A DNA stretch of 64,000 nucleotides from an uncultured Gammaproteobacteria bacterium (GTDB lineage Bacteria; Patescibacteriota; Microgenomatia; UBA10105; UBA927), in assembly GCA_964573695.1 (NCBI GenBank), contig CAZNKB010000003.1, positions 36,815 through 100,814 on the forward strand. Direction: 5' to 3'. Position 1 is the stretch's first letter; each line of letters starts with the position of its first letter. The notes under the pieces were generated by a model. It was not told the origin of the DNA. It was given only the letters and a program-made list of their open reading frames with translations, and searched no databases. Made by a program: the position numbers and the translations under genes. Positions 31,559 through 62,997 of this stretch are shown here, piece by piece.

Positions 31559-32659
31559 ATGATACCGCTCAATAATCTCTCTCTTCATCATCGCAGCTTG
31601 TCTCATCAGTTCATCGCATCTCTTAAGCGAGTCATGAAACATGGTACGTATATTTTGGGTCCGGAAGTTATAGCATTCGAATCGGCCTTTGCCCGATATA
31701 CCAACACGAAATACGCTATCGGTGTGTCAAACGGCACAGATGCTCTTACGGTATCCCTCAAAGCGGTCCATATCGGCCCGGGAGACGAAGTGATCATTCC
31801 GGCGTTTACGTTTGTGAGCACTGCGTTTGCCGTGCTTCAAACCGGAGCACGACCTGTCCTTGTAGACATAGAACCAACCACATATACCATAGACACCCTC
31901 CAAATGGCCCGGGCGATAACTCGCAAAACAAAAGCAATAATTCCCGTACACCTATATGGCATGCCTTGCGATATGGACATGATCGGACGCCTCGCCAAAA
32001 AGTATAGACTCACCGTCATTGAAGACGCGGCTCAAGCACACGGGAGTTTCTATAAGAAGCGTCCGGCTGGTTCTATTGGGGATATGGGGTGCTTCTCGTT
32101 TTACCCATCCAAAAATTTAGGAGCCTTGGGAGATGCGGGGGCCATAACGACAAACTCATCTCGTCTCGCCTCCCGGATCCGAACCATAATAAATTTGGGC
32201 ACTACAAAAAAATACATACACGTAGATATCGGGGTGAATAATCGGCTTGATAGCTTGCAGGCTGCTTTTCTTTCAAGTGAGCTCCCGATGCTAAATTCAT
32301 GGAACGCGAGACGCCGAAACATAGCGGCGCGCTATACTTCCCTACTTAAGGAGTTGCCGATCGAATTACCGAAAACGCAAAAGGAGCGCATCACCAACAT
32401 GCATTTGTATGTCATCCGCACTAAACAGCGTGCGGCATTACGCCGACACTTGCTTGCCCGAGGCATACAAACAGGTATCCACTACCCTAAGGCGCTCCAT
32501 GAACAACGAGCGCTCCACATGCTTGGGTACACCAAAGGGGCATTTCCGGTAAGCGAGACCGCCGCAAAAGAAGTACTGAGTTTGCCCATGTATCCCAAGC
32601 TCACCGATCGGCAAATCATAACAGTAACCTCGGCAGTTCGGTCATTTTTTCGCCAATGA
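31559..32659 (+). CDS. DegT/DnrJ/EryC1/StrS-family PLP-dependent sugar aminotransferase
   Basis: ...GVSNGTDAL...DEVIIPAFTFVSTA...IEDAAQAHGS...FSFYPSKNLGALGDAG. Confidence 0.75.
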   Translation: MIPLNNLSLHHRSLSHQFIASLKRVMKHGTYILGPEVIAFESAFARYTNTKYAIGVSNGTDALTVSLKAVHIGPGDEVIIPAFTFVSTAFAVLQTGARPVLVDIEPTTYTIDTLQMARAITRKTKAIIPVHLYGMPCDMDMIGRLAKKYRLTVIEDAAQAHGSFYKKRPAGSIGDMGCFSFYPSKNLGALGDAGAITTNSSRLASRIRTIINLGTTKKYIHVDIGVNNRLDSLQAAFLSSELPMLNSWNARRRNIAARYTSLLKELPIELPKTQKERITNMHLYVIRTKQRAALRRHLLARGIQTGIHYPKALHEQRALHMLGYTKGAFPVSETAAKEVLSLPMYPKLTDRQIITVTSAVRSFFRQ

Positions 32660-35418
32660 AACGCTACCTTATTTTCATTCCTTTTCACAATCCATGGGAC
32701 TGGCATACGGATTACGCAAATCAAACCGCTACACTGTTGTCTCTACACCACAGTGTGATCTGTTTCCTGTGGGGTGATACAGTTTCCCTTCGCGAAATTT
32801 TCTCGGGAAGAAAACAGTACCGTCCGATAACCCGTCGTGGACGCACGATTTTGTATCAGCCGATTTACCTCATTCCGGGAAAGCGCGTGCTTGCGGTACA
32901 GTTTATAAACTTGTTTTTCAATCTCTTGATTGCATATATTTTATGTTCAATAACCGCAATTTATCACAAAAAACAGCTCCTTTTCTGGTTTTTCGGGATC
33001 TACGACCCGACTTTTATTCTCCTGCCAATATTTTTCCGGCACACTCCTACGCTGTACGACTGCGTCGATACCCCGTGGCATCCGAAACCGGAGATGGCTT
33101 CTCGGCTCCAGCAAGCAGAAGCGGACATATTGGATCGCGCTTGGATTGTCGCGACCAACTCGCATACGCTTCGCAGTAGACTCCAAAAGACGAGAAAAGA
33201 CATCCACATGGTTCCTCTTGGATTCCGGTCGGAAATGTTTGAACGCCCCCAAAAACATCCGCTCCCTTTTTCCCGAAAACGTCCGATCATTTGCTATACC
33301 GGAGCAATTGATTACCGCCTGGATTTCCCCCTGTTATATCGCCTTATAAGGGCTAACAAAAACTGGCAGTTTGCACTCATCGGCCCTGTGTTCTATGACC
33401 ATATGGTGGCAAAATCCCGTCGTCTCATGGACACCGTATTGACCCTTCCGAACGTATATCACAACACTGTCAGGCCAAACGCAGTGCCGGATATCATAGC
33501 CCAAAGCGACATAACTATCATTCCCTATCGGAATGATTTCGCTTTTAACCGCTATGCTTTCCCCATGAAAATCATGGAATATTTATATGCCAAAAAGAGA
33601 ACTATCACAAGCCAAATCAATGAACTTCGCGGGTACAACCCCCTTGTGGTTATGGCGCAAACCACACGCGAATGGACGACATCAATTCGATATGCCCTGG
33701 CACACCCGCTCGACCAAACTCAAAAACGGAGGGCGCGTCTTACCGCCTCGTCGCACACCTGGAAGAAAAAAATTGACGCCCTCAATCACATACTGGAAAA
33801 TACTCCGGACGACACTACCGGACAGCGCCGATCAGACAAAACTACGGCATTCTGGCTTATTCTTTCCTGCATCCTATTGATCTCATTCGCACTTCGCTTC
33901 TACCGCCTTCCCGAAACCATATGGTTTTTTAATGACCAGGGGCTTGATATGGTGAGCATCTTGCAAATGGAAAAACATGGGATATTGCCTCTCGTCGGAC
34001 CTTTTTTGGATATTCCCGAGGTATATACGCCACCTACGTACTATCTGATCACATGGGCGATGTATCAAGTCACGCACACCGTCATCGGCGTCGTCTATGG
34101 TTATGCACTTCTTAATCTATTTACCATAGTCGTTCTTACAAAAGTAGCGCTCGATAGCATGGGGCGGCGCGCAGCAATTTTTGTGGGAATCCTTCTTGCC
34201 GTATCCGACACTATGATTGATCAGAGTAGGACATTTTGGCAACCCTATCCTATTCAGATATTTCTAGCACTTAGCATCTTGGGATTATGGCAGGCACACA
34301 AAACCAAACGCCTGGTATTTGTATGGCTCGCATCACTCTGTTTTCTTGTGGCCTGCTCTATCTATCCTTCCCCGATCCTGTTATTACCGTTTGTGGCTTA
34401 CCGAATATTTCTCTGGTATCGATTTACCGGACGCAAACGAGTCGCCACATCAGTCTTCCTTGCGATGTTTACGCTTGGAGCGACAGCCGCGCTCGTCTAT
34501 TTGCCTCAAATTGTATTTGAATTTACCCGTGGATTTCCAACAATTATGTCACTATTCTCGACACACACGGAAAAACTCATCCTCAATCCCATGACAAGCT
34601 TGGCACAAAACATTTCCCTGCTTTTCACGGATTTTTTTGCCATACAGCATCTACCCGACCCGTTCAAACCCATAATGATCATAAGCATCGCGGCGCTTTA
34701 TCTTTTCCTCGTTTACAAAACACGCTCCTGGGGAGGAGATAAGCCTCCGTTTTTTGAGCTTTGGCCGCTTGCGCTGGGTTTTTTGTGGTTTCTCTTCTAT
34801 CCGTATGAAGCGCATGCCCACCGTACGGTAGCATATTTGCCTTTTGGCTTTTTGTTGACAGCGGATCTATTGGCCCGAGCATGGAATACGAATCGTGGAA
34901 CGAAATCTCTTGCGGCCGCATTGTTGTTCGGGTATATCATACTCAATCTTTATGGCGCGAAAGGATATTGGATAGGGACCGTTCCCGACCAGAGGAAACA
35001 AACCAAAGACGTCGCGCGCTTTATCGAATCGGATATCGTCACGCGCAATATACCACGGGACACGGTAGGAATTTTCTATAAAGCTGCCAACGACCCGACA
35101 AATGGAAATTACGGCATATACCGTATTTTATTTTGGTTACTGCAACGTGAGGCAATTTCATTTCCCCTTAACCAAGGGGACATACAAATCCCGCATGATT
35201 ATTCTACCCCCATACTCAAACCCTATATGTACATCGTCTGTTGGGGGTTTTCTCTAACAGATTCATTACACGACACGTGTATAAAACCCGTCATCAAATC
35301 CGCACCATATCGCTTTCTTATGGAGCGAAGACTACATGATATGACTATTATGGTGCTGACAAACGAGTCAACGGGCTCTGCCGCTTCCTTCTTTCCTGGC
35401 AACGACCAAAACCGATGA
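32656..35418 (+). CDS. fusion protein: N-terminal GT-B (GT4-like) glycosyltransferase domain plus C-terminal GT-C (ArnT/PMT-like) polytopic membrane domain
   Basis: aa ~200-400 read ICYTGAIDYRLDFPLL...FPMKIMEYLYAKKRTI (GT-B C-domain). aa ~420-900 hold more than 10 TM helices with an early loop FYRLPETIWFFNDQGLD. ATGA overlap with the upstream aminotransferase. Confidence 0.6.
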   Translation: MKRYLIFIPFHNPWDWHTDYANQTATLLSLHHSVICFLWGDTVSLREIFSGRKQYRPITRRGRTILYQPIYLIPGKRVLAVQFINLFFNLLIAYILCSITAIYHKKQLLFWFFGIYDPTFILLPIFFRHTPTLYDCVDTPWHPKPEMASRLQQAEADILDRAWIVATNSHTLRSRLQKTRKDIHMVPLGFRSEMFERPQKHPLPFSRKRPIICYTGAIDYRLDFPLLYRLIRANKNWQFALIGPVFYDHMVAKSRRLMDTVLTLPNVYHNTVRPNAVPDIIAQSDITIIPYRNDFAFNRYAFPMKIMEYLYAKKRTITSQINELRGYNPLVVMAQTTREWTTSIRYALAHPLDQTQKRRARLTASSHTWKKKIDALNHILENTPDDTTGQRRSDKTTAFWLILSCILLISFALRFYRLPETIWFFNDQGLDMVSILQMEKHGILPLVGPFLDIPEVYTPPTYYLITWAMYQVTHTVIGVVYGYALLNLFTIVVLTKVALDSMGRRAAIFVGILLAVSDTMIDQSRTFWQPYPIQIFLALSILGLWQAHKTKRLVFVWLASLCFLVACSIYPSPILLLPFVAYRIFLWYRFTGRKRVATSVFLAMFTLGATAALVYLPQIVFEFTRGFPTIMSLFSTHTEKLILNPMTSLAQNISLLFTDFFAIQHLPDPFKPIMIISIAALYLFLVYKTRSWGGDKPPFFELWPLALGFLWFLFYPYEAHAHRTVAYLPFGFLLTADLLARAWNTNRGTKSLAAALLFGYIILNLYGAKGYWIGTVPDQRKQTKDVARFIESDIVTRNIPRDTVGIFYKAANDPTNGNYGIYRILFWLLQREAISFPLNQGDIQIPHDYSTPILKPYMYIVCWGFSLTDSLHDTCIKPVIKSAPYRFLMERRLHDMTIMVLTNESTGSAASFFPGNDQNR

Positions 35419-36117
35419 TCCGTAGGGATACGATACGAAGGGTAATATCCACGATTCTATCCTATGGAGAAAGATGCACATTTCATTTATCTTGGTGGGT
35501 ACAGCCGAAACGTCCGATGCGCACCCTTTCACATTGAAAAAACGGTCAACCAGGCGCTTCATGGCAAACCAGGGAAACAAAAAAAAGAACATATAAGAGA
35601 TTTTCCGGATGCCAAATCCCGCCTGAGCGACACGCGACCCCAAAAGCGCGCTTGTATAGCGTATCCTGCCGTGTACCGCACGGTCGTGCGGACCAGCCAA
35701 CCACGGCATAGCGCAGTCGGTCACGATAAGCAGTCCGCCCGGCTTAAGAATCCGGTTTGCCTCAGCTAACGCCTTGCGATCGTCTATCCCCCGGTGATAA
35801 AGCACGTCAAATAAACAAACCATATCCATACTTCTCGTAGCCAGCTTTGTCCGCTCCGCATTATCTGCCCGCAACGATATGCCGCGCTTTTTGGCCAACT
35901 TGCGTGCTTTGTGATGCGGCTCAATACCAATCACCGTTCCGTACCGCTTGAGAAGCGAAAACATCCCTCCGGTTCCCGCGCCGATATCTGCAATGGTGAG
36001 GCGCTTTACACCTATCCCGATGTGCCGAAACATGGACTCCAAAAATAAGCGGCGTGAGACAAACCACCAGTGAGTTTTCTCGACATCATACATCACCTGA
36101 TATTCATGCTCTTCCAT
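35368..36117 (-). CDS. class I SAM-dependent methyltransferase
   Basis: IADIGAGTGGMFSLL motif I; ...ILKPGGLLIV. Confidence 0.65.
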   Translation of the reverse strand: MEEHEYQVMYDVEKTHWWFVSRRLFLESMFRHIGIGVKRLTIADIGAGTGGMFSLLKRYGTVIGIEPHHKARKLAKKRGISLRADNAERTKLATRSMDMVCLFDVLYHRGIDDRKALAEANRILKPGGLLIVTDCAMPWLAGPHDRAVHGRIRYTSALLGSRVAQAGFGIRKISYMFFFLFPWFAMKRLVDRFFNVKGCASDVSAVPTKINEMCIFLHRIESWILPFVSYPYGSSVLVVARKEGSGRAR

Positions 36118-37105
36118 GGATAAGACGGCCAGCGAGTGCGCCTGCGAAAATGAAACAATATAACGTAAGCCCGGTGAAAAAGCTTTTTGCGGCAAAAACC
36201 CCGCCCTTTTCCTGATACACAAAGACGAGAAACTTTCGGATCAGGAAAAAGTGGATGACTATGATCACCCCAAGCGCCACCAACGCGTATCCTACGCTAC
36301 CTAAATGACTTAGATAACTCAGGGATGTTGCGATCACAGCTCCCACCACTCCTACCCCGCTCAGAGTCGTCAGAGCCTCTTGCATGGTGGTTGCCACAGG
36401 ATCAAATCGTTTACGCCTGGCATATAGCTTGGTCCAGTAATACGCACGGAGAAAATATTTTTTGGCAATCGGCCAAAATCCTTCAAATTCATGCCGGACT
36501 CTCACCTGAGGTGCAAAAATAATCGCATACCGCCTTGCTATCCGATATGTCAGCTCGATATCTTCGACTAACGGCGCGGGATAGTTTTCGTCAAAGCCTC
36601 CCAGCCTCTCAAACACGGCTTTTTTTATCGCGGCGATCCTGGTCGAAAAGAGAAAGTAGTACCCGCTCTTATCACGCTCATTTATCCAATAACTCCAATC
36701 CCGAAGCGCTTTGAAGTTGGGGAAAAAATCTTTCGAGCGTTGATGCTTTACCCAAACGCCTGTCAGCGCGACGATATCCGGGTCGTCCGAAAATACATTC
36801 GCTATTTCCGATAGAGTATCAGGAAATACCTCAACGTCTCCGTCCAAAAATACGACAAATTCCCCTTTCGCCGCAGCTACCCCCCTGTTTCGAGCCACCG
36901 CAGGTCCTTTGTTATGTGGTAAGCGGACGATATTTGCGGTTTTCTTTCGCATCACGCGAAACGGCAATGGCTGTTTGGATCCGTCGTCAACGACGATAAT
37001 TTCATATGGCGGAGCGTTCTTGCTTTTGGCAAGAGTGAATAGAAGTCGTTCTAGTTTATCCGGAGCGTTAAAATAGGGAATAATAACCGACAAATATGGC
37101 TTCAT
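36104..37105 (-). CDS. glycosyltransferase family 2 with C-terminal TM helices
   Basis: LSVIIPYFNAPD...IIVVDDGS...FVVFLDGDVE, with 2-3 C-terminal TM segments. Confidence 0.65.
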   Translation of the reverse strand: MKPYLSVIIPYFNAPDKLERLLFTLAKSKNAPPYEIIVVDDGSKQPLPFRVMRKKTANIVRLPHNKGPAVARNRGVAAAKGEFVVFLDGDVEVFPDTLSEIANVFSDDPDIVALTGVWVKHQRSKDFFPNFKALRDWSYWINERDKSGYYFLFSTRIAAIKKAVFERLGGFDENYPAPLVEDIELTYRIARRYAIIFAPQVRVRHEFEGFWPIAKKYFLRAYYWTKLYARRKRFDPVATTMQEALTTLSGVGVVGAVIATSLSYLSHLGSVGYALVALGVIIVIHFFLIRKFLVFVYQEKGGVFAAKSFFTGLTLYCFIFAGALAGRLIHGRA

Positions 37106-37222: not shown

Positions 37223-38362
37223 TTACAGAGCCTTCAACACCTTCCGGGCAGTAGATATTACATAATCCAGCTCTCTTCCTGTCATCCCGGCATAGATTGG
37301 CATACGCACCAGCGTTGCCGCTACATCTTCTGTCACGGGCAATCTGATATGTCCTCCCGATAGACGCTTTCCCATGGGAGAAGCGTGAAGCGGCATATAA
37401 TGCGTAGAGACTTCGATATGTTTGGCGCGCATTGCTTTTACAAAGGCCTCCCGCATGCGTGTGTCGGCAAATTTAAGCGCATAAATGTGCCAATTCGGCT
37501 GCGTCATCCCCTCCGGTGCCATGGGAATCTGTATTTTCCCGGCAAATGACTGCAATGCCTTACTATATTCTGATGCAATGTGACTTCTATCTTTATTTAT
37601 TTTATCAATTTGACCTAGTTGTATATTTACCAATGCGGCAAGTATATCGGAAAGCATAAAACTACTTCCCTCCCCTACCCAACTATATGCTGATACTTTA
37701 CCGGCCAAAAACGCCATCCTATCGGTGCCTATAGAACGGAATATTTCCATAGCATTTGCCAGCTTTTTGGAATTCGTGAGAATACTTCCTCCCTCACCGG
37801 CCGCGACGTTTTTTGTCCCATGAAAACTAAGCGCTCCGGCTACCCCAAAGGTACCCAAGGCTTTTCCTTTATATAAAGCGCCTATACAGTGCGCCGCATC
37901 CTCAACTACCCATATCCCTGCTTTTTTTGCGACCCGCATGAGCTCCTCAAAATACCGGCCGGCAAACCCTGCGTAATGTACTGTGATAATACCGACAGTC
38001 CGTTTGGTAATCCGACGCATAACATCGCGTGGATCAAGGCTATAGTGTAGAGGGTCAATGTCAGCAAATACCGGAGTTGCACCTCTGACCATGGCGGCCG
38101 TAGCAGTGGAGGCAAGTGTAAAGCTGGGTACGATGATTTCATCACCCTTTTTTGCTCCCAGACAGGCAACTGCTGCTTCCATGGCGTGTGTGCAACTCGT
38201 GACCGGAATTGCGTATGTGGCTTTCGTAAGCTGTATCAGTTTTTTGCGCATCAGCACTGACTCCGGCCCGTCTGCAGTACCCACACCGGTACGCATAGCA
38301 TGGATTACGCCTGCTTCTGCTTTCACCCCCCAAAACGGTTTATGGAGCGGAATTTTCATCAA
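37223..38362 (-). CDS. DegT/DnrJ/EryC1-family PLP-dependent sugar aminotransferase (second copy)
   Basis: ...VEDAAHCIGALYKGK...SFHGTKNVAAGEGG (PLP-Lys motif). Confidence 0.75.
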   Translation of the reverse strand: MMKIPLHKPFWGVKAEAGVIHAMRTGVGTADGPESVLMRKKLIQLTKATYAIPVTSCTHAMEAAVACLGAKKGDEIIVPSFTLASTATAAMVRGATPVFADIDPLHYSLDPRDVMRRITKRTVGIITVHYAGFAGRYFEELMRVAKKAGIWVVEDAAHCIGALYKGKALGTFGVAGALSFHGTKNVAAGEGGSILTNSKKLANAMEIFRSIGTDRMAFLAGKVSAYSWVGEGSSFMLSDILAALVNIQLGQIDKINKDRSHIASEYSKALQSFAGKIQIPMAPEGMTQPNWHIYALKFADTRMREAFVKAMRAKHIEVSTHYMPLHASPMGKRLSGGHIRLPVTEDVAATLVRMPIYAGMTGRELDYVISTARKVLKAL

Positions 38363-38881: not shown

Positions 38882-39401
38882 TGAGTTTTGCCGGCACACC
38901 CGCTACCATAACGCTGTCGGGCACGGATTTCGTAACGACGGCGCCTGCACCGACCACGCTTTTTTTGCCTATCGTAACTCCGGGCAATATAATCGCTCCC
39001 GTACCCACATAAGCCGCCGGCTTCACGACGACACTCGCTTCACGAGTCGGATAGATGCGCTGCAACGGATGATCGTCGTAACCCACATTTATATGTGTGA
39101 CGACCGTTACCCTGCCGGAGAGCGTCACCTCATCGGCAAGCTCAATGCCGCCGCGAACGTCCAAACTGACTTCATCGCCCAAAAAACATTTGTCGCCGAT
39201 TGTCAGCCTGCGGAAACCGTAATGATGCAGATTGGTAAACTGCACATTCATTATCACCGTGTCTTTTCCTATCGTTGCTCCCGCCAGCCGCAGGAGAACC
39301 ACCCGTACGGGCGGCAACGACATATGAATAATCCAGGCATAAAAGCCATACCACACATAGCGGATCGCTTTCGACACCCCTATGGATTGCAGCGCCTTCA
39401 T
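38868..39401 (-). CDS. hexapeptide-repeat (LbH) sugar N/O-acetyltransferase
   Basis: Repeats IGDKCFLGDEVSL...IELADEVTLSGRVTVV...VGTGAIILPGVTIGKKSVVGAGAVV. Confidence 0.7.
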   Translation of the reverse strand: MKALQSIGVSKAIRYVWYGFYAWIIHMSLPPVRVVLLRLAGATIGKDTVIMNVQFTNLHHYGFRRLTIGDKCFLGDEVSLDVRGGIELADEVTLSGRVTVVTHINVGYDDHPLQRIYPTREASVVVKPAAYVGTGAIILPGVTIGKKSVVGAGAVVTKSVPDSVMVAGVPAKLIKRI

Positions 39402-40117
39402 AGATGTAATCGCTTCCGAAACTTCAACAACTGTACCACATAGTCTAGCGTATCCCGGAATATATTTACCGACGAGACTTTATCGAATCTGCGCAAAAAC
39501 AAGACCGGAACTTCGGTAATCCTCAAACCCGCGCGGCGCGCATATACCATGACCTCGGTATCCCAAAACCATCCGGCATACTGCGTTTTTGAGATAACCG
39601 GCAAAATCTTTTTCCTGTGGAAAAACTTATAACCGGTTTCCGTATCCATACCTCCCGTTCCGATAAGCATGTCAGAAAGCCATTGATACCCCCGACTCAG
39701 CACCTCACGAAGGACCGCTCTCGGACTTGTCCGATAAAAACGCTTTCCGATCACGACATCGGATTTTTTGTTGAGGATCATCGTCACAAGCAGCGGAATA
39801 TACACCGGGGATACTTCGCAATCGATATCGATATACCCCACAACGGTAGCGCGTGCCTCACGCATACCGTCCATGACGGTTTGACCACGGCCTCTGTTGG
39901 TAGCGTGATACAAGGCCCGCATTGATGGATTGTTGCGACAAACGGATGCAATTAATCGAGGGGTGATATCCCGGCTGGCGTCGTCAACGAAAATTATCTC
40001 ATAGGAAAGCCTGCTCGCATCAAGCACTTCAACGATTCGCTCGACACTTTCCATGAATAAACCGGACTCGTTGAAACACGGCAATATAAGGGAAAGATCC
40101 AGGGATAATTGCTTCAT
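39398..40117 (-). CDS. GT2 polyprenol-phosphate glycosyltransferase (DPM1/ArnC/GtrB-like)
   Basis: LSLILPCFNE...EIIFVDDASRD...VVGYIDIDCE. About 240 aa and soluble. ATGA overlap with the acetyltransferase. Confidence 0.7.
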   Translation of the reverse strand: MKQLSLDLSLILPCFNESGLFMESVERIVEVLDASRLSYEIIFVDDASRDITPRLIASVCRNNPSMRALYHATNRGRGQTVMDGMREARATVVGYIDIDCEVSPVYIPLLVTMILNKKSDVVIGKRFYRTSPRAVLREVLSRGYQWLSDMLIGTGGMDTETGYKFFHRKKILPVISKTQYAGWFWDTEVMVYARRAGLRITEVPVLFLRRFDKVSSVNIFRDTLDYVVQLLKFRKRLHL

Positions 40118-47824: not shown

Positions 47825-47893
47825 CGATACATGGCAAGAGTGGCGCTTGCCATTTTTCTCTCGCAAAGCGTATTATGTGGAAAAGCAATATCT

Positions 47894-48307
47894 ATGTCAC
47901 GCGGAATCGAACCTATTTTGCATCACAAAAAAGAAATCGCGTGCGTCTATCGTAAAACGATCAAAGCATCGGGAATTCGTTTTCTTACCCAGCCTCAAAA
48001 CGCATTTCAAATTGGCTTGCACGACCGTAAACTCCCCGTATCGCTCCCTGCACATATCCATAATTGTCCGACACCCTTATCCATACCGGAAATTCAGGAG
48101 GTACTATTTGTTATCAAAGGAAAAATTCGCATTACCATGCTCACGAAAAATAACGAGGTAATCGCCAAAAAACTCTTATCATCCGGGGATGCGGTGTTAC
48201 TAAAAACTCAGGCACATAAAGTCGAATTCCTGGGAAATGCCCGGGTTTTTGAAATCAAACAAGGACCCTACCCCGGAGATGCAAATGCCAAACATTACCT
48301 AACATAA
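47894..48307 (+). CDS. cupin-domain protein (FdtA/WxcM-like sugar isomerase candidate)
   Basis: PAHIHNCPTP...EVLFVIKGKIRI...GDAVLL cupin motifs; ~137 aa. Confidence 0.5.
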   Translation: MSRGIEPILHHKKEIACVYRKTIKASGIRFLTQPQNAFQIGLHDRKLPVSLPAHIHNCPTPLSIPEIQEVLFVIKGKIRITMLTKNNEVIAKKLLSSGDAVLLKTQAHKVEFLGNARVFEIKQGPYPGDANAKHYLT

Positions 48308-48330
48308 TAACCTAAATCCCATGTAGCTTC

Positions 48331-49089: not shown

Positions 49090-49682
49090 ATACGGCACTA
49101 CATATCCGTCCCATGCGGCTATCGGATATACCCGAAGCGAGCCAACTTCACCTACGTACATTACCCGGAGTGGTCGCCAATATCGGCATCCCGTACCTTA
49201 CGGCTCTCTATACCCGCCTCTTTCAACTACCAGCCTTCCATATTGCGCTCGTGGCCGAGGAGCAATCACACATCGCAGGAGTCATCACGGCAACGACCAA
49301 TCTCTACAAAACCCAAGATGCTCTATCCTGGATATTCGTGCAGCCTGCCGTCCTAGCAGCTCTATGCGTGGCAGTACTCAAACGCCGGGTAACGATATCC
49401 GACCTTCTCAAGCGGTTCATCAAGGAGAGGCATTTCCGCGCCCGATTTAAAGCCCCGTATCCTACTATTCTCACCTTTTTTGTCGGCCTGCCGTATCAGC
49501 ACAAAGGCATAGGGAAACAGCTTCTTGTCAGTCTGAATCGACAGCTTCCCCGCAACATACCCCTTTATGTCGACACCGAAAAAACAAACGTTCACGCACA
49601 GGACTGGTACAGCTCCCATGGATTTGAAAAAATTGCGGATGTCGACGCAAATGTCGTTTATCGTCAACAGATCTTACACTGA
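49086..49682 (+). CDS. GNAT-family N-acetyltransferase
   Basis: From internal Met MNTALHIRPMRLSD (ATGA overlap at 49086). Acetyl-CoA motif VGLPYQHKGIGKQLL. Confidence 0.6.
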   Translation: MNTALHIRPMRLSDIPEASQLHLRTLPGVVANIGIPYLTALYTRLFQLPAFHIALVAEEQSHIAGVITATTNLYKTQDALSWIFVQPAVLAALCVAVLKRRVTISDLLKRFIKERHFRARFKAPYPTILTFFVGLPYQHKGIGKQLLVSLNRQLPRNIPLYVDTEKTNVHAQDWYSSHGFEKIADVDANVVYRQQILH

Positions 49683-54738: not shown

Positions 54739-54763
54739 AATCGACGCATTGTAGCAATACATT

Positions 54764-55605: not shown

Positions 55606-56271
55606 ATGGAAGACTCCAAAGAATCCAACATAGTACTCCCTGCAATTATCATAAGCATCGTGCTTTTTGCCGGTGTCTATTTTGCGTTTCAATCGTCCAA
55701 GTCGCATCAAGGTACAATCGTGCTTCCGGGAGGAATCACCTATCTGGGTCCCACACCGACAGAAAAGCAAACCACGGAAACACCGGCAACAGAGGGTGGC
55801 AATCCTATCCCCGTTTCCAAAGATACGCCCTGGAGTCAACGCCGCGGAGTTACTTTTCCTTACACATTCTCGTACCCGGAGACACTTTCCCTGGGAACGT
55901 TTCCCGATGACCCGTACGACTCGCTCACTCTTTTTTATCCGGGAACGGACGCCAACGCAAATATTTTTTTCCGTGTGGATGACCTTACCAAACTCAACAA
56001 AAAACAATACCTGGGAAAAACCGAGGAATATGCTAAAAACTGGTGGAAAGAATACAATTGGAAAGGTGTCGAATCCGTTACTGCGTTTACCAATAGCAAG
56101 GGGCTCAAAGGGCATAGGGCGAAATACCTAAACGACCAAAACAATACCCCGTACGATCATGTATTTTTTGAGATTCCGGCCTCGGACAATCTCGTCATTT
56201 GGCTCAGCGGAAAACTCTTCAGCCGCGAAGTTTTCGACCGCATGGCTGATTCAGTCTCGTGGAACCCGTAA
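55606..56271 (+). CDS. membrane-anchored hypothetical protein
   Basis: N-terminal TM VLPAIIISIVLFAGVYFAF followed by a soluble domain. Confidence 0.45.
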   Translation: MEDSKESNIVLPAIIISIVLFAGVYFAFQSSKSHQGTIVLPGGITYLGPTPTEKQTTETPATEGGNPIPVSKDTPWSQRRGVTFPYTFSYPETLSLGTFPDDPYDSLTLFYPGTDANANIFFRVDDLTKLNKKQYLGKTEEYAKNWWKEYNWKGVESVTAFTNSKGLKGHRAKYLNDQNNTPYDHVFFEIPASDNLVIWLSGKLFSREVFDRMADSVSWNP

Positions 56272-57854
56272 AGAAAATCATGATAGACGCCGTAATCGTT
56301 AGCATCATTGTCCTTGCCACGGCAGAAAACTACCTCCCGTTTATCATCGGACTTATGCAAACCCCCGATCAGTATGTATTTTTGGGAACGGTGCATCACC
56401 CCGCCGACTATTTCTACTATCTTTCCCAATTTGCCCAGGGGTCATACCGCTTTATAACAACGGTCAATCTTTTCTCAGGGGAACAAGCTACTCCGACCTT
56501 TGTCGGCTGGAGCAACGTGTTGATAGGACGCTTTTTTCATATATTCGGCCTTTCCCCGTTTGTTGCGTATCACGTGAGTGTTCTCCTGTTAACTGCACTG
56601 CTTTTTATTGCCGGCTACCAGCTGTTTTCCACTATGATGCCCAAACGTCCGGCGACACTTGCCCTTTTTCTGTTTGCCCTGTTCCACGCATTTCCGGTAC
56701 TGCGTGACGGCTTACCGTCCTATGGGGATTACTGGAACAACTTTGCCGTCCCTAGAGTCCGATTCGGCGGCGTGCCGCACCAGCTTCTGCTTACTGCGGC
56801 TTCCTTTTTCATGGTTTATTGTTTCAATATCTGGATACAACGTAAACATCACACATGGAACATACTCGCCGGCCTCGGAATATCCAGTCTTATTCTGGCA
56901 AGTCTACAACCCATCTTATGGGTGCTTATCGTGGGTGTAGTTGGACTTTCCGTATGCATCCACACGGTGATAACCACAAAACAGGTCACCTTTGTGCTGC
57001 GCGCCGTGCCCCCGGTCCGTATGTGGCTTACTATCCTCATCAGCGGGGCACTGCCCCTTCTTTACCTCAACCGGCTGTTTTCTGCTCTTCCGTTCTCCCA
57101 GCTTAGAGCGTGGGAGGCTCATGCACAAACGTCCCTCACTCCCGAACATATACTCACTGCTACCGGGCCCGTATTACTGATTGCGCTCTTTTCGCTGCCT
57201 CATTTCATAACACGGCCGTCATTTGTAGCGCTTTTTACCGCGTTGTTTTCCGTTGTCTCCTTCAGTCTCTTTCTCTCCCCGCTCCCGCAGTACCTGGCCA
57301 TAAGCCACGTCCGCTTCATGTCGGCGCTGACCGTGCTTTGTATTTCCAGCATTGCTGCAAAGGGAATAATGTCGCTTTGGCAATCCCGGAACCGCGTGGC
57401 ACGCACTGCAGGAATACTCATTTTTGCAGGCACAGCAGCCCTCCTGATTCCGAATCATTTCAAGACGCTGGAGCTATCAACCCGATTTGATCCAAATAAC
57501 GCCTATTACTACCTCACTAACACTGACTATGCATTTTTGAAAGAAGCGGGTTTAATCGGCACACTTGAGGACACATTCCTCGTCGCCTGGCCGTATAACA
57601 GTATGTTTCCGGCAATTACCGGCAGGCGATCGTACAACGGACACCCGCTCATTACCGTCAACTCACCGGAGAAGGATCGGCTCGCCGCCGCCATTCTCAA
57701 CGGCTCCATGAGTGCGGAAGCAACCCATACGTTTTTTCTGGAAAACCACATTACCTACCTCATCGTACCTGCGGACAACACCTATATTGCAAATCTGCTG
57801 TATCTTACCCGAAAACTAGCTTCAAATAGCCTTGTTTTGTATACAGTACGGTAA
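56259..57854 (+). CDS. polytopic membrane protein, paralogue 3 of the uncharacterised GT-C-like family
   Basis: VHHPADYFYYLSQFAQGSYRF...FSGEQATPTF and PRVRFGGVPHQLLL motifs. GTG start at 56259 or ATG at 56280. Confidence 0.55.
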   Translation: MEPVKKIMIDAVIVSIIVLATAENYLPFIIGLMQTPDQYVFLGTVHHPADYFYYLSQFAQGSYRFITTVNLFSGEQATPTFVGWSNVLIGRFFHIFGLSPFVAYHVSVLLLTALLFIAGYQLFSTMMPKRPATLALFLFALFHAFPVLRDGLPSYGDYWNNFAVPRVRFGGVPHQLLLTAASFFMVYCFNIWIQRKHHTWNILAGLGISSLILASLQPILWVLIVGVVGLSVCIHTVITTKQVTFVLRAVPPVRMWLTILISGALPLLYLNRLFSALPFSQLRAWEAHAQTSLTPEHILTATGPVLLIALFSLPHFITRPSFVALFTALFSVVSFSLFLSPLPQYLAISHVRFMSALTVLCISSIAAKGIMSLWQSRNRVARTAGILIFAGTAALLIPNHFKTLELSTRFDPNNAYYYLTNTDYAFLKEAGLIGTLEDTFLVAWPYNSMFPAITGRRSYNGHPLITVNSPEKDRLAAAILNGSMSAEATHTFFLENHITYLIVPADNTYIANLLYLTRKLASNSLVLYTVR

Positions 57855-57888: not shown

Positions 57889-58701
57889 ATGGTATCTTTA
57901 TCTATTGAAATGACTACTGCCGAATTTCGTCCGGTTGGTGAGATCTTAAACCCCCACGCTCCGAACTTTAGCGAGCTTCACTACCACGTCAGAATCGATG
58001 CGATGACCCCGGAAGACAAACTCTACTGGCTTTCCGATCAAATCCTCAAAGAAGAACACCGCCTGTTGCGCGAACCATACAACATGCCCCAGATCCGCCC
58101 CGAGGCAAAAATCATGTTCCTGACTGGCGGGCCCAAATCAGACGTGACCGAAGCGCGGGATTTCGAGGGGAACTTGATCCACACGCGTCACCTTGATCAT
58201 CCGCGCCCCATGTTTGCCGAAATTCCCGAGGCACTTAGCTCGATTTCCCACTGGTTTGACCTGACAATCCAAAGCAAGGAAAATAATACGGTACCCCCTT
58301 CTCCTGTCGCAGCACTCTCAGAGGTATCTGACGTCGTCTATAACGTCTCCCATCTCCTTACCCTCGATGAATATTTCTGGGAGGAATACAACGAGTACTT
58401 AAAACGCATCGCAGAATCCTTGGGATACAACCTGGATCAGCTCCTCACGATTGCGGTTTATAAATACAACTTTCGCCTGGGTCAGGGCAAATCACAAAAA
58501 AATATCGGCATCGAAAACGACCTGATCGCAAAAGTACTTTCCAAAACCGGTGCTGACGGCAAACCGCTTTTCCCTACTCCCACCGAAGCGCAGTTCCAAA
58601 AAACCTTCCACACGCTTGCCGAAGTGCAAACGCTCCTCAATACCCGCCTGGAACAGCTGCGGCAGGATTATGAGTGGAAACGAAACCCGGTCACCGGATA
58701 G
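57889..58701 (+). CDS. hypothetical cytoplasmic protein
   Basis: 270 aa with no TM. Acidic and helical C-terminal half. No domain recognised with confidence. Confidence 0.45.
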   Translation: MVSLSIEMTTAEFRPVGEILNPHAPNFSELHYHVRIDAMTPEDKLYWLSDQILKEEHRLLREPYNMPQIRPEAKIMFLTGGPKSDVTEARDFEGNLIHTRHLDHPRPMFAEIPEALSSISHWFDLTIQSKENNTVPPSPVAALSEVSDVVYNVSHLLTLDEYFWEEYNEYLKRIAESLGYNLDQLLTIAVYKYNFRLGQGKSQKNIGIENDLIAKVLSKTGADGKPLFPTPTEAQFQKTFHTLAEVQTLLNTRLEQLRQDYEWKRNPVTG

Positions 58702-58751
58702 GCACTGTTTGTGCAATTTCACAAATCAGCAAATTCCCGTATGATAAAAGG

Positions 58752-60602
58752 GTGCGAAAAAATGCCCTTCTCTTGTCTCTTATAGCCATTGGCGTAATGT
58801 TACGCCTTACGCTTATCCCTAACCCGGGTTTTGAAGCGGATATATCATTCTGGAAATCCTGGGGGCTGGCAGCCGTCGATAAAGGAGCGGTCGAAGGGAT
58901 CAAAGTCACGAATAACAATTATCCGACGCCCTTCGTTTACACACTGGGCATCATGGTGGGGATATATAAATTGTTTGCCGATCCTCATAATTTCAACGAA
59001 TACTGGAGCAATACCAATCTCCTGTTTCTTGCGATAAGTAAGCTCCTGCCAATACTGGCTGATCTGGGTATTGCCCTGCTCATATTATATATAGGCAAAA
59101 GCACAACTTCCGCGAGCCGTAAGATAGGATTTCCCGCTGTCTCACTTTCGTTCTTTGGCCTTTCGTTTTACGAACTGCTTGCTACTACTTACCTTCTTTC
59201 ACCCGTTTCCCTCATAGACGGCGCATGGTGGGGCCAAGTCGACAGCGTGGGCGTATGCATATTCCTTTCCGCTCTGGTGTTGGTACTCAAAAAACAACCG
59301 TTCTGGGCAGGTCTTGTCTTCATGCTCGCGATGATGACCAAACTCCAGAATATGATCTACGGCCCCGTGTTATTTCTCTTCGTTTGGCAGATCGCCGGAT
59401 TACCAGGACTCATTCGCGCGGTAGCGGGAGCATTCGTCGGATTTGTGGGCCTCAATGCGGAATTCCTGGCATCTCATAACGCCGACCGGGTATTTGCTTC
59501 GCTGACAGAAAATTATGACTATTTCCCCTGGATGAGTCTTATGGCATATAACCTATGGTGGATTGTCACGGGAGCCAAAGGGCTCATGACGTCAGACAAA
59601 CTCACGGTACTTGGTATACTCAATGCAAAAACCGTTGGCCTCGTATTATTTAGCGCCACCTATCTCTTCGCCACTCTTAGGCAATTGTGGGAAAAATCCA
59701 AAACTGACGACTCCAGTATGACGAAACTGACCCTCGAAAGCCTGATTCTGGTCAACGCCGCGTTTTTCCTCTTCCAGACGCAGTCACATGACCGGTATGC
59801 ATATCCACTTTCCGTTTTTCTTCTCTTATGGGCGCCGTTTTATATAAGTAATCGGCAAACGGTAAACGGTAAACGGCATGTTGTACTATTTACTATTTAC
59901 TATTTACTATTTACGCTCTTTTACTTCTACAATCTCCATACAGCCCTTGTCGTCAATTATCCGCACAACGGATTGCCGTGGCTCTCCTTACTGACGCAAC
60001 CTGTGTTTACCCTAGGAACCGCGTATATGCTGCTTGGATTGTTTGGTGTATTCGTTTATTCACTTCTCTTGACGTCCAAAAAATCACGCGTGCTGTTATC
60101 TATAATCATAGGGCTCGTGTTAGCAGGCCTCCTGGGACTCAACGCCCCGCTACTCACCCGTAAACCGGTCAGCCTGACAACATTTGTGCCTTTTATCAGC
60201 GAGCAGGCATATGGTACTCGTCAGACAAATAGATCCGTCCAAAGTTCATTCGGCGACGCTTACAAATGGACCAGGCTTTCCGTGCAGTATCTGTTTTATG
60301 ATAAGGGCATCGGCACGCACGCACGGAGCAAGCATGTATTTGATATCAATAACAAATTCAAACGATTTACCGTAGATTTCGGCATAGACACCGAGGCAGG
60401 TGCCAAAGGAACTGCTATCTTTGAAATTTGGGGGGACGACCGTCTTTTGTATCGATCAGATATCATGGGCCGATATGATCTGCCAAAACACGCCGACGTG
60501 AATATTGCGGGAGTAAAACATCTATCCCTCATAACGACAGACGCGGGTGACGGCAACTATGACGACCATACGGACTGGCTCAATCCGCGTTTGTTCCCAT
60601 AA
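58752..60602 (+). CDS. GT-C-like polytopic membrane protein fused to a C-terminal NPCBM (glycan-binding) domain
   Basis: About 12 TM helices with an early loop GFEADISFWKSWG. The C-terminal segment KRFTVDFGIDTEAGAKGTAIFEIWGDDRLLYRS...IAGVKHLSLITTDAGDGNYDDHTDWLNPRLF matches the NPCBM fold signature. Start uncertain (GTG 58752, or 58674 overlapping the upstream gene). Confidence 0.6.
   Translation: MRKNALLLSLIAIGVMLRLTLIPNPGFEADISFWKSWGLAAVDKGAVEGIKVTNNNYPTPFVYTLGIMVGIYKLFADPHNFNEYWSNTNLLFLAISKLLPILADLGIALLILYIGKSTTSASRKIGFPAVSLSFFGLSFYELLATTYLLSPVSLIDGAWWGQVDSVGVCIFLSALVLVLKKQPFWAGLVFMLAMMTKLQNMIYGPVLFLFVWQIAGLPGLIRAVAGAFVGFVGLNAEFLASHNADRVFASLTENYDYFPWMSLMAYNLWWIVTGAKGLMTSDKLTVLGILNAKTVGLVLFSATYLFATLRQLWEKSKTDDSSMTKLTLESLILVNAAFFLFQTQSHDRYAYPLSVFLLLWAPFYISNRQTVNGKRHVVLFTIYYLLFTLFYFYNLHTALVVNYPHNGLPWLSLLTQPVFTLGTAYMLLGLFGVFVYSLLLTSKKSRVLLSIIIGLVLAGLLGLNAPLLTRKPVSLTTFVPFISEQAYGTRQTNRSVQSSFGDAYKWTRLSVQYLFYDKGIGTHARSKHVFDINNKFKRFTVDFGIDTEAGAKGTAIFEIWGDDRLLYRSDIMGRYDLPKHADVNIAGVKHLSLITTDAGDGNYDDHTDWLNPRLFP
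59853..59915. repeat. two adjacent heptanucleotide tandem repeats, (cggyaaa)x3.5 and (tactatt)x4, inside the GT-C::NPCBM coding sequence
   Basis: cggcaaa cggtaaa cggtaaa cggcatg ... tactatt tactatt tactatt tactatt tacg. Confidence 0.85.
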
Positions 60603-60633: not shown

Positions 60634-62997
60634 ATGAAGCATATTGAAAAACTTATCGGTATCGGCCTGCTGCTTTTTGCCGTGGTATTCAACCTATGGA
60701 CCTATCGAGCGGAACCGAACGCACTCGTTGATCCGAATGATAATACATTCCAATTCGCTTTGGTTGACAGGACAAACCAGATATTGTCTTTTGCACAACA
60801 AAAGTGCACTGGCATAACCAAGCCATTCTGTGTGTTGTCATATCTTACCGATCACTGGGTTCCTAACTGGGCAGAGGGGTATAACCTGCCTTCCTATTAC
60901 TCGCATATCCCACAGATCGTCATCGTGATAACTTGGAAAATAGCTGCGTTGTTTTCTTCTCACTATTCTCTCTTTACCCATTATCATTATGTAGTTTATT
61001 TCTTGTTGTGCCTGTTTCCTCTTTCCTTGTTTATCGCGCTTCGCATCATCGGCATTTCGTGGGTGACGGCAGGTATAGGCGCTGCATTGGCAACCCACCT
61101 TTCCACAGACGGATTATACGGACTGGACCCCACATCATTTCTTTGGCGCGGGTACGGATTAAGCAGTCAGCTTTTTGCCATGATCTGGCTACCCCTTGCT
61201 GTAGCATATGCCTGGAGATATCTAAGCGGTACTCCGACAAAACAGACACTGCTACTGGCAATCCTCTTCCTTGCGGCAGTCACAAGCGGGCATCTGGGTA
61301 TCGGCATCATCGCATTTATGAGCATCGGCATACTTGCGTTTGGACCGTTGATTCGATCCATACTTACAAAATCCTGGGGCACAAGCTCGACAAACCTCGC
61401 ACTCGCACATACACAAAAACTCCTGCTTGTTTTTGGCGGGGTCGGGCTCCTTCTCGGATATTGGATCCTGCCGATATTGCGGGACGGCAACTATCATAAT
61501 ATTTCCGTTTGGGACGGTATTTGGAAATTCGATTCCTTCGGCTACCGCAACGTGCTGGCGTGGCTATTTAATGGGGCATTATTTGATTTCGGGCGCGCGC
61601 CGATTATGACGGCTCTCATACTACTCGGGGTTTTTGTAGCTGCACAAACCGCATTTTTTGATTTCGCGGTGCTGTTTGTATTCTGGGTGCTTATGTATTT
61701 CGGACGCACGACATGGGGTCCGCTATTTACCCTCATTCCCGGCATGAGCGAATTTCACCTTTCCCGGTTTATCGTCGGTGTTCATATGACAGGATTATTC
61801 CTGATTCCGATGAGCATAGATTGGGTGATATCACGCGCACGCGCGCTGTTTTCGTCTCCCATGCGGCAACCTGCCTCCGTCTGGCTCGGTGTCGCTACAG
61901 CGGTGCTACTCATCGTGAGCGCCTATCCGCAAACCATGCGGTACAGTGCACACAATGATTTCCTGATCGCTCGCGGCAATACGAACTACCAAAGAGATTC
62001 AGAAGATATTGATGCGCTCATTTCACTGCTTCGGACAAAGCTTCAGGAACATCCTGGTCGGGTGTTTGCCGGCAGAGGTGGAAGCTGGGGCAAAAATTTC
62101 CGTATCGCCGAAACCCCGATGTATATGCACCTTTCCACGTACGGGATCCCGGTTATCTTATGGCTGCCGGAAACGTGGTCGCCCAACTCGGACACGGAGC
62201 AGTATTTTTCCGAAAGTAACCCTGCCCACTACTCCCTCTACAATGTGCGGTACGTCGTAACCCAGACAACGCTCACTCCAGAACAAATACAACCCTTCTG
62301 GAGGCTTACAGAAAGCGGAAAGACATGGAAATTATATGAAGTGACGGCTTCTGTCGTCCCAAGCGAAGTCGGAAGATCCGGATATATCACAACCGGAGTG
62401 CGCCCGGCCACCGTAAGCAGTAGTAAGACGGACTATCGATCCCTCATCCGACTTTGGATGCATTCAAAGGCATATAGTCAGGCATTGTTCCCCGAACTTA
62501 CGTTTGATTCTTCGTATCCTAAGAAAACCGGACTTCCCAATTTTCGCATGCTCGATGAGGTGACATACGAGGTGCCGGACGGATCCGTGCACAATCTTTT
62601 CGCCGAAAATCCTCTCTACGTAAGCCCCCTAAGTGATCTAAGTACCTTAGACAAACTAAAAGTTACTTCTCAATCCTCCGACAACGATATGGTGTTTAAT
62701 GCAACCGTCGATGTTCCCAAAAACTGCGTCGAATGCATGGTCATATTGAAACAATCTTTTCACCCGTCATGGCGGGCATCAGTTGATGGCACGCCAATCA
62801 AGCCATTTGCCGTATTTCCGTTCTATACGGCAGTCGACGTACATACCCCAGGAAAACACGAAATCGTATTTTCATACGAACCGTCACTTATGAAAAAAAT
62901 CCTGCTTATCATCGGTATTGTTTCTCTGACATTTTCTGTAGGCATCCTCATCTGGCTAGCCCGTCCCGACAACCTGCGCAGATTCAACCCCGATTAG
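60634..62997 (+). CDS. large polytopic membrane protein with C-terminal extracytoplasmic domain and a final TM anchor (GT-C-like, family not assigned)
   Basis: From MKHIEKLIGIGLLLF (GGAAG RBS 9 nt upstream). More than 12 TM helices, a ~300-aa hydrophilic domain and a C-terminal TM (ILLIIGIVSLTFSVGILIWL). Confidence 0.55.
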   Translation: MKHIEKLIGIGLLLFAVVFNLWTYRAEPNALVDPNDNTFQFALVDRTNQILSFAQQKCTGITKPFCVLSYLTDHWVPNWAEGYNLPSYYSHIPQIVIVITWKIAALFSSHYSLFTHYHYVVYFLLCLFPLSLFIALRIIGISWVTAGIGAALATHLSTDGLYGLDPTSFLWRGYGLSSQLFAMIWLPLAVAYAWRYLSGTPTKQTLLLAILFLAAVTSGHLGIGIIAFMSIGILAFGPLIRSILTKSWGTSSTNLALAHTQKLLLVFGGVGLLLGYWILPILRDGNYHNISVWDGIWKFDSFGYRNVLAWLFNGALFDFGRAPIMTALILLGVFVAAQTAFFDFAVLFVFWVLMYFGRTTWGPLFTLIPGMSEFHLSRFIVGVHMTGLFLIPMSIDWVISRARALFSSPMRQPASVWLGVATAVLLIVSAYPQTMRYSAHNDFLIARGNTNYQRDSEDIDALISLLRTKLQEHPGRVFAGRGGSWGKNFRIAETPMYMHLSTYGIPVILWLPETWSPNSDTEQYFSESNPAHYSLYNVRYVVTQTTLTPEQIQPFWRLTESGKTWKLYEVTASVVPSEVGRSGYITTGVRPATVSSSKTDYRSLIRLWMHSKAYSQALFPELTFDSSYPKKTGLPNFRMLDEVTYEVPDGSVHNLFAENPLYVSPLSDLSTLDKLKVTSQSSDNDMVFNATVDVPKNCVECMVILKQSFHPSWRASVDGTPIKPFAVFPFYTAVDVHTPGKHEIVFSYEPSLMKKILLIIGIVSLTFSVGILIWLARPDNLRRFNPD

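Follow-up and report, generated by a model that had tools for sequence, protein, structure and literature searches.

The stretch of DNA analysed here, called the window below, is 64,000 nucleotides of contig CAZNKB010000003.1 (assembly GCA_964573695.1) from a groundwater member of the Patescibacteria, Gottesmanbacteria-like and with a genome of about 1 Mb. The subject is the span 32656-62997 of this window, in which open reading frame (ORF) listing and hydropathy place 25 tightly packed genes in about five alternating operon-like runs. Eleven of them encode polytopic membrane proteins, which occupy 19,983 of the 30,342 bp (66%), are 367-920 amino acids (aa) long and have 7-11 Kyte-Doolittle hydrophobic segments each. 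These proteins are glycosyltransferases of the C fold (GT-C), nine of them firmly and two probably so, and two soluble family 2 glycosyltransferases (GT2), predicted to make polyprenyl-phosphate-sugars, lie among them. An earlier note on the same DNA had listed the eleven ORFs, and all are present where it put them, small start-codon refinements aside, which are backed by orthologue lengths. The 40164 gene is bounded at 41693 and not at 41819, its orthologues being 509 aa long, and the gene previously started at 58752 runs from 58674 to 60602; the starts of 46721 and 60634 were kept. Genes are named below by their lower coordinate. The membrane proteins and the two GT2 enzymes are as follows.

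32656..35418, plus strand: 920-aa fusion of an N-terminal cytoplasmic GT4/TuaH-like domain (Glyco_trans_1_4 5e-5, TuaH 1.6e-23) and a C-terminal polytopic PMT_2-like half; probable GT-C, moderate evidence
39398..40117, minus strand: soluble GT2, polyprenyl-phosphate-sugar synthase-like, of the DPM1/GtrB/ArnC/PpgS type (PDB and NCBIfam matches; no transmembrane (TM) segment)
40164..41693, minus strand: GT-C-fold glycosyltransferase of a Pfam-orphan Patescibacteria family (structure model and Foldseek)
41719..43329, plus strand: GT-C-fold glycosyltransferase, paralogue 1 of what we call the DY family, which has no Pfam model
43310..45025, plus strand: GT-C of the PMT_2 (ArnT/PMT-like) family (PF13231, 2.6e-14), with 56-67% identical orthologues in 10 loci
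45036..46724, plus strand: GT-C of the YfhO/PTPS_related superfamily (PTPS_related 6.5e-5; hhalign to the YfhO family)
46721..47824, plus strand: 367-aa protein with 10 TM segments, probably a small GT-C and the weakest case
48331..49089, plus strand: soluble GT2, dolichyl/polyprenyl-phosphate hexose synthase-like (PDB PfDPMS 5mlz, 9e-29)
49674..51695, minus strand: GT-C of the YfhO family (PF09586, 1.5e-14), with orthologues in 18 loci
51686..53344, minus strand: GT-C, DY family paralogue 3 (BLASTP to 41719, 4e-16), with 55-64% identical orthologues in 19 loci
56259..57854, plus strand: GT-C, DY family paralogue 2 (BLASTP to 41719, 8e-37 over 522 residues)
58674..60602, plus strand: GT-C with a GT87/Gpi18-like membrane domain and a C-terminal extracytoplasmic NPCBM domain (1.8e-32)
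60634..62997, plus strand: YfhO-like GT-C that carries a large extracytoplasmic domain and ends in a TM anchor

Neighbouring genes often overlap by 4-20 bp, with 4-bp overlaps at 38868/39398, 45036/46721 and 48331/49086. When the eleven membrane proteins were compared all against all by BLASTP, only 41719, 56259 and 51686 proved to be paralogues (23-25% identity, E 8e-37 and 4e-16), and the others were mutually unrecognisable. The eleven thus make up at least six mutually unrecognisable families, which argues that old, distinct families were collected here, not that one gene was recently amplified in tandem.

Taken as single sequences, two of the eleven score above a Pfam cut-off, namely 43310 with PMT_2 (54 bits versus a cut-off of 26) and 49674 with YfhO (PF09586; 53.8 bits versus 28.5). 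The latter also has weak NCBIfam matches to PgfM1 and PgfM2. Six of the eleven have no Pfam match in the Pfam and NCBIfam scans of single sequences. Orthologues were gathered from 21 genome loci, three word-indexed protein searches and one exhaustive HMMER search. The 40164 family has 231 homologues, nearly all named hypothetical and without a Pfam domain; two of them match PMT_2 and one matches DUF2142. The AlphaFold2 model of 40164 has a pLDDT of 92.6 and a pTM of 0.92, and the models of 40164 and 41719 (pLDDT 93-95) have at least 11 long helices each. When the 40164 model was searched against PDB with Foldseek, the top 37 matches were all GT-C enzymes (STT3, AglB, PglB, Pmt4, DPY19, ALG9/12, ArnT, AftA, Emb). 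For both models STT3, AglB and PglB match best (E 1e-6 to 1e-8), AftA, ArnT and ALG12 score as well as the oligosaccharyltransferases, and transporters appear only below the GT-C matches, at E>0.03 and TM-scores of about 0.1. Both modelled proteins are therefore similar in three dimensions to solved GT-C enzymes. In superposition, the soluble domain at the C-terminus of the DY family fits the globular domain of AglB. An STT3-like oligosaccharyltransferase identity for the DY family, suggested by these fold matches, was rejected because the family has no WWDYG motif. On the models, the 40164 and DY families are two GT-C families that have no Pfam model, and in these searches they were found only in Patescibacteria.

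The other assignments come from profile comparison and from orthologues. Shallow alignments gave only weak hhalign links; deeper alignments placed 45036 and 60634 but not 46721. The YfhO family aligns with 45036 at 98.3% over 461 columns (its PTPS_related match is sub-threshold) and with 60634 at 98.8% over 535 columns. For 60634 the exhaustive HMMER search gave 1336 homologue clusters, and 29 of 39 distant homologues match Pfam YfhO. Both proteins are tied to YfhO at the superfamily level only. Several orthologues of 58674 carry PF09594 (GT87), and JGI uses the name 'Gpi18-like mannosyltransferase' for several others. For the C-terminal half of 32656, hhalign with the PMT_2 family gives 82.7% over 128 columns, and there is a sub-threshold Pfam PMT_2 match (E=0.016). 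For 46721 there is a sub-cut-off match (3.8e-10) to the NCBIfam model AZOBR_p60025, a 'cell surface glycopolymer formation' protein, and among six orthologues one matches PMT_2 at 6.3e-7 and one GT87 at 0.011. Neither hhalign nor PDB searches linked 46721 to GT-C; the metagenome scan had given only four close loci, and a sensitive profile would take more than these. Hidden Markov model (HMM) profiles of four families, including that of 46721, found nothing among PDB sequences. The profile of the 58674 family found only NPCBM structures there and no GT-C, and the deep A12 profile found no GT-C either. The high density of GT-C genes claimed earlier therefore stands firmly for nine of the eleven, while the C-terminal half of 32656 and 46721 have moderate to weak support.

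In every alignable family an invariant Asp or Glu lies just after TM1, in the first extracytoplasmic loop, where GT-C enzymes have their catalytic or metal-binding acid. The 40164 family has an invariant R-x-x-D-x-D-E at this place (D39/D41/E42). In the DY family D48 and Y52 are invariant and Y49 nearly so in the first outer loop (41719 numbering), and 51686 has the invariant D-Y..Y.S motif of the family. The corresponding acids are D43 in 43310, D32 in 49674, D36 in 60634 and D39 in 46721, where the invariant sequence after TM1 is W-D-G-P-G-Y. In 58674 an invariant E54-A-D56 follows TM1, and in 45036 there is F-D at 33-34. The comparison covered the families apart from 32656, which has only one close orthologue. 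GT-C enzymes are polytopic, with 8-13 TM helices and the N-terminus inside the cell; the N-termini of the membrane proteins here are rich in Lys and Arg, which fits such an orientation.

That the membrane proteins are transporters or have other non-glycosyltransferase folds, or that the block is a chimeric assembly, is very improbable. The six proteins without a Pfam match as single sequences and the empty PDB profile searches of four families fit the former, but the fold searches rank GT-C first, and the profile-profile and orthologue evidence, together with a gene order that recurs in independent assemblies, tells against both. The earlier note had named both as possibilities; the first is refuted for nine proteins, and the chimera is refuted by the loci described below.

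The two soluble GT2 enzymes are predicted from their matches to be of the polyprenyl-phosphate-sugar synthase type. In PDB the best match of 48331 (252 aa) is PfDPMS (5mlz, 9e-29) over residues 6-228, the whole catalytic domain, followed by ArnC (4e-13) and GtrB; that of 39398 (239 aa) is also PfDPMS (5mlz, 4e-10), followed by GtrB (2e-8) and ArnC (3e-6). The top NCBIfam matches are Dol-P-hexose transferase, PgfS and ArnC for 48331 and PgfS, AglJ, ArnC and PpgS for 39398, in both cases below the equivalog cut-offs. The DPM1/GtrB/ArnC-like nature that had been proposed for these short enzymes is confirmed by the PDB and NCBIfam matches, and both are soluble. Neither has a hydrophobic segment, so that the C-terminal TM anchors of GtrB, ArnC and PfDPMS are absent. 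Human DPM1 and PpgS are anchor-less members of the same group of synthases. Both GT2 genes were said to sit immediately beside GT-C genes; this holds for 39398, which adjoins 40164, but 48331 is one gene away from a GT-C gene on each side. A third GT2, 36104, was considered as a further polyprenyl-phosphate-sugar synthase for its C-terminal TM segments and rejected, its best family matches being EpsD and MftF.

Between the GT-C genes lie DegT aminotransferases, left-handed beta-helix and GNAT acetyltransferases, two cupins, a methyltransferase and two HAD hydrolases. These intervening genes, including two or three for DegT proteins, are predicted from sequence to encode sugar-nucleotide tailoring enzymes. 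The remaining genes of the block, with the DegT gene that leads into it, are as follows.

31559..32659, plus strand: DegT/DnrJ/EryC1 sugar aminotransferase (PF01041, 1.3e-115); its stop overlaps the 32656 start by 4 bp, and L027, one of the related loci, has an orthologue at the same position
35368..36222, minus strand: S-adenosylmethionine-dependent methyltransferase (Methyltransf_11, 5.7e-16)
36104..37105, minus strand: GT2 with two C-terminal hydrophobic segments, EpsD/MftF-like (Glycos_transf_2, 2.2e-26; top NCBIfam matches EpsD and MftF)
37223..38362, minus strand: DegT-family sugar aminotransferase (PF01041, 1.5e-85), adjoining the acetyltransferase/GT2/GT-C block in L001, L009 and L011
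38868..39401, minus strand: left-handed beta-helix (hexapeptide) acyl- or acetyltransferase (Hexapep, 2.4e-9), syntenic and 57-67% identical in at least six loci
47831..48307, plus strand: WbuC-like cupin, putative sugar-nucleotide tailoring enzyme (TIGR04366, 1.7e-5)
49086..49682, plus strand: GNAT acetyltransferase (Acetyltransf_7/10/1), 189 aa in L027
53399..53953, plus strand: RmlC-like cupin of the dTDP-sugar epimerase/isomerase family (PF00908, 1.1e-11), 80-90% identical in at least 10 loci
53965-54777 and 54764-55564, minus strand: two HAD-family hydrolases (Pfam Hydrolase/HAD_2)
55606..56271, plus strand: single-pass membrane-anchored protein with an extracytoplasmic domain (one N-terminal TM segment), in 16 loci
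57889..58701, plus strand: soluble protein, the most conserved gene of the block (82-91% identical in five loci)

Some of these genes form modules with the glycosyltransferases. In one (37223-38868-39398-40164) and in a second with GT-C genes on both flanks (47831-48331-49086), the arrangement mirrors the order of the Arn pathway, that is, aminotransferase, acyltransferase, polyprenyl-phosphate-sugar GT2 and GT-C. In L024 and L026 a DegT gene lies between the WbuC-like cupin and the GT2; the window has none at that position. Two products, those of 57889 and 55606, drew no match in Pfam, NCBIfam or PDB. The 57889 protein (270 aa) is 82-91% identical across Gottesmanbacteria loci. The 55606 protein has a Thr/Pro-rich linker and an outer domain, and in 16 loci its gene immediately precedes the DY-family GT-C gene 56259; the protein might help the GT-C to bind its acceptor, or might itself be a substrate. 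The last GT-C gene is followed at once by a type II toxin-antitoxin pair, an RHH/ParD-like ORF (63049-63309) followed by a YafQ/ParE-like ORF (63313-63573).

The block is not confined to this contig. The closest relatives are metagenome-assembled genomes (MAGs) of Candidatus Gottesmanbacteria, with 41719 at 52-55% identity, and further relatives carry the label Woesebacteria or Patescibacteria. More than 20 contigs from independent assemblies repeat the acetyltransferase-GT2-GT-C module and the whole core block, in the order 38868-39398-40164-41719-43310-49674-51686-53399-...-55606-56259-57889-58674-60634. Locus L024, on a 190-kb groundwater contig, and L027, on a Logan contig that is 87% identical, follow the window gene for gene, including the 920-aa fusion. 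Loci L013 and L023/L024 come from the Hainich H41 well. The fusion has an orthologue of identical length at L027:16264-19026, and no homologue of it was found in the 21 genome loci. The core genes 40164, 41719, 43310, 49674, 51686, 56259 and 58674 keep their order at 45-65% identity across Gottesmanbacteria, Woesebacteria and other Patescibacteria. Base composition varies little (GC 0.45-0.52). Conserved order in independent assemblies and even base composition exclude a chimeric assembly. Many public MAGs contain the locus, with its products annotated as hypothetical proteins.

Parts of the block do vary. The sub-block 45036-49682, with two GT-C genes, a cupin, a GT2 and a GNAT gene, is an insertion present only in L013 and L023-L027; in L001-L012 it is absent between 43310 and 49674. 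The numbers of YfhO and DY paralogues differ by locus, and L020 has three tandem YfhO-like genes. Such variation is what would be expected if the GT-C genes were alternative, redundant side-chain modules of the Gtr or serotype-conversion type, diversifying one surface glycan against phages or for host recognition, and not a sequential line: the sub-block 45036-46721-47831-48331-49086 is found only in some relatives, and YfhO and DY paralogue counts change between loci. We consider this explanation improbable as a whole. The core retains its order and its 45-65% identity, unlike a hypervariable island, and there are no phage or mobile-element genes inside the block. Conservation across families suggests that the block serves a core function of the envelope and is not an island that varies by strain.

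The mechanism class proposed earlier, in which GT-C enzymes fed by polyprenyl-phosphate-sugar GT2 enzymes glycosylate on the outer face of the membrane, is supported by the enzyme identities. In the scheme we propose, the tailoring enzymes would make N-acetylated amino or deoxy sugar nucleotides in the cytoplasm, and at the inner membrane face the two GT2 enzymes would attach one sugar at a time to polyprenyl phosphate. A flippase encoded elsewhere would flip the lipid-linked sugars, and the eleven GT-Cs, differing from one another in their specificity for acceptor and linkage, would transfer them on the outer face. An adjoining Wzy-type cluster could supply the acceptor in the form of its polymer, and elongation, branching and decoration would then take place outside the membrane. 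The logic would be that of mycobacterial arabinogalactan and lipoarabinomannan (LAM) and of the 'multi-component transmembrane glycosylation systems' of Gram-positive bacteria, and some of the enzymes may act on surface proteins too.

On balance, we lean towards reading the span as a conserved supercluster for glycosylation of the cell envelope in Microgenomates-type Patescibacteria, with an envelope glycopolymer or lipoglycan as its most likely acceptor. Four observations favor such an acceptor. Two donor synthases serve eleven GT-Cs, which is the arabinan and mannan pattern of mycobacteria (PMC5964476, PMC3485146); together with the NPCBM fusion described next, it also recalls systems that decorate cell-wall polymers (PMC8035078). 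The 58674 protein carries the glycan-binding NPCBM domain and the YfhO-like proteins have large outer domains; extracellular carbohydrate-binding domains on GT-Cs have been tied to polymer acceptors (PMC8035078). A Wzy-type cluster (Wzy_C/GT2/GT4) adjoins the span, and the block shows the degree of conservation expected of a core function of the envelope. For amino sugars as donors, PpgS and Rv3779 provide a precedent (PMC5964476).

The adjoining cluster occupies 18808..31461, outside the span, and by Pfam encodes two Wzy_C proteins, three GT2 enzymes, an Alg14/Alg13-like pair, a radical-SAM/SPASM protein, a GT4, a GFO/IDH/MocA oxidoreductase and a leucine-rich repeat (LRR) protein. The two Wzy_C genes had been counted inside the span, but they lie upstream of it, at 18808-20910 (plus strand) and 27504-29171 (minus strand).

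The contig also offers possible protein acceptors. Upstream of the adjoining cluster, 14-30 kb from the GT-C block, are three genes for pilins and three for giant Laminin_G/collagen/lectin proteins in which Ser+Thr make up 22-27%, and the earlier note proposed protein O-glycosylation. On such a reading the GT-Cs would put polyprenyl-phosphate-sugars on Ser/Thr of pilins, S-layer proteins or giant adhesin-like proteins and then extend the O-glycans outside. DPM1/PMT, mycobacterial Ppm1/Pmt, PgfS/PgfM1/PgfM2 of S. mutans and TfpW of P. aeruginosa would be the analogues. YfhO-type PgfM1/M2 glycosylate adhesins and TfpW is a pilin arabinosyltransferase, and for this reason protein targets keep a place among the possibilities, although we regard them as a rather doubtful answer for the block as a whole. 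No protein has a PF02366, MIR or PMT_4TMC domain in Pfam scans at E<=0.1, 43310 having PMT_2 alone, and the WWDYG motif is absent, the regular expression W[WYFL]D[YFWH] being unmatched in all eleven. Fold similarity does not single out protein-modifying enzymes, as AftA, ArnT and ALG12, which act on other acceptors, score equally well. Known protein O-mannosylation needs one GT-C and not eleven, and the NPCBM domain suggests that the acceptor is a glycan. Homologues of the giant proteins and pilins were not found in the flanks of 26 related loci, these flanks being at most 10 kb compared with the distance of 14-30 kb here. The proposed glycosylation of the giant Ser/Thr-rich proteins and pilins is thus not supported: there is no PMT/MIR architecture, no WWDYG motif and no link beyond the shared contig.

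Two observations concern these neighbours themselves. The Wzy_C gene at 18808-20910 (plus strand) divergently adjoins three type IV pilin-like genes at 17045-18896 (minus strand). The pilin O-oligosaccharyltransferases PilO, TfpO and PglL are Wzy_C proteins encoded next to pilin genes, and this Wzy_C protein may be the candidate pilin-glycosylation enzyme of the contig. At 6425-11263 an ORF of 1612 aa starts with two DNA-binding motifs of the MerR/HTH_17 type, has collagen triple-helix repeats and ends in an H-type lectin domain; it is either an odd fusion or has a mis-called start.

Several points weigh against the envelope supercluster with a glycopolymer acceptor. Both the acceptor and the chemistry are matters of inference, and two of the eleven GT-C assignments are weak. 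Pfam scans and an ORF survey found no GtrA-, Wzx- or ArnE/F-type flippase and no initiating phosphoglycosyltransferase in the window; no Pfam scan of it gave a GtrA or Polysacc_synt match, and among its unassigned ORFs of at least 60 aa only 30014-30739 has three or more TM segments. This ORF (minus strand, 241 aa) has three hydrophobic segments and no family match, and its range takes in the start of the LRR-protein gene (30595-31461). A gene outside the locus may supply the flippase; in Gram-positive bacteria CflA and GtcA are encoded apart. The anchor-less GT2 enzymes need a partner or amphipathic helices, as GacI, also anchor-less, needs GacJ (PMC8035078). YfhO-type PgfM1/M2 can glycosylate proteins, and weak NCBIfam matches to them were seen here. 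Finally, the pilins and the giant proteins rich in Ser and Thr (22-27%) are on the same contig.

Patescibacteria lack many biosynthetic pathways, yet in this lineage about 30 kb, probably about 3% of a genome of about 1 Mb, is spent on eleven extracytoplasmic glycosyltransferases, in a block that is conserved across families. A block so conserved suggests that the surface glycan is central to the biology of these cells, be it in host attachment, in envelope integrity without a normal lipid supply or in phage defence. The two donor synthases, the defined GT-C families and the lectin-like domain offer handles on a chemically uncharacterised envelope.

Among known systems, DPM1 with PMT (GT39) and Pgf of S. 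mutans pair a DPM1-like GT2 with GT-Cs of the PMT_2 or YfhO type, as in the locus. However, similarity to PgfS, PgfM1 and PgfM2 is weak and far below the model cut-offs (28 versus 1400-1500 bits), and the locus proteins lack the N-terminal domain (PF02366), MIR and PMT_4TMC of PMT. Protein O-glycosylation systems also need far fewer GT-Cs than the locus has. STT3/AglB/PglB (GT66) are the best fold matches of both models, but there is no WWDYG and no sequence-level match in PDB profile searches.

The mechanism class is that of the three- or multi-component systems of Gram-positive and Gram-negative bacteria, CsbB/GtcA/YfhO, GtrA/B/C, GacI/J/K/L and ArnC/E/F/T (PMC8035078; PMC11127046), in which a cytoplasmic GT-A/GT2 enzyme makes a C55-P-monosaccharide and a polytopic GT-C of the PMT_2, YfhO or an orphan family transfers the sugar outside, as proposed here. 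The GT2 and GT-C genes are adjacent in them, as in the locus; a soluble GT-A that needs a membrane partner has a precedent in GacI/GacJ; and the DegT and acyltransferase genes beside GT2 and GT-C mirror ArnB/ArnA/ArnC/ArnT. Unlike the locus, these systems have one GT-C per GT2 in scattered pairs, whereas eleven GT-Cs of at least six families depend here on two donor synthases in one 30-kb block. No GtrA or Wzx flippase gene is found in the locus, and the host here is a Patescibacterium with a genome of about 1 Mb.

A further comparison is the assembly of arabinogalactan and of lipomannan and LAM in mycobacteria and corynebacteria, with the donors made by Ppm1, DPA and PpgS and the GT-Cs PimE, MptA-C, AftA-D, EmbA-C and Rv3779 (PMC5964476, PMC3485146). 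The sugars there are arabinofuranose or mannose, whereas those of the locus are probably N-acetylated amino or deoxy hexoses. HMM profiles against PDB sequences detected no homology to the Emb, Aft or Mpt families. The emb/aft region of M. tuberculosis has about 5-6 GT-Cs in about 30 kb, and the gene density of the present locus is above that of any characterised locus known to us. It is conceivable, though we hold it with reserve, that the product is a new complex envelope heteropolysaccharide or lipoglycan, built almost wholly on the outer face by the eleven GT-Cs from two polyprenyl-phosphate-amino-sugar donors. An ultra-small symbiotic bacterium would then have evolved independently what mycobacteria have in arabinogalactan/LAM, or what the luminal ALG pathway provides, with at least two GT-C families known only from the candidate phyla radiation (CPR).

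The earlier statement that no such system had been described agrees with literature searches for GT-C arrays in CPR/Patescibacteria, which yielded no description of the locus. Multiple Dol-P-Man-synthase-like genes were noted in passing in Peregrinibacteria (PMC4736985), and one GT87 was noted in a Saccharibacterium (PMC6031116). The density is exceptional in comparison with characterised systems, and the new elements are the eleven GT-Cs of at least six families in 30 kb, the donor-to-transferase ratio of 2:11, the GT4-GT-C fusion and two Pfam-orphan GT-C families.

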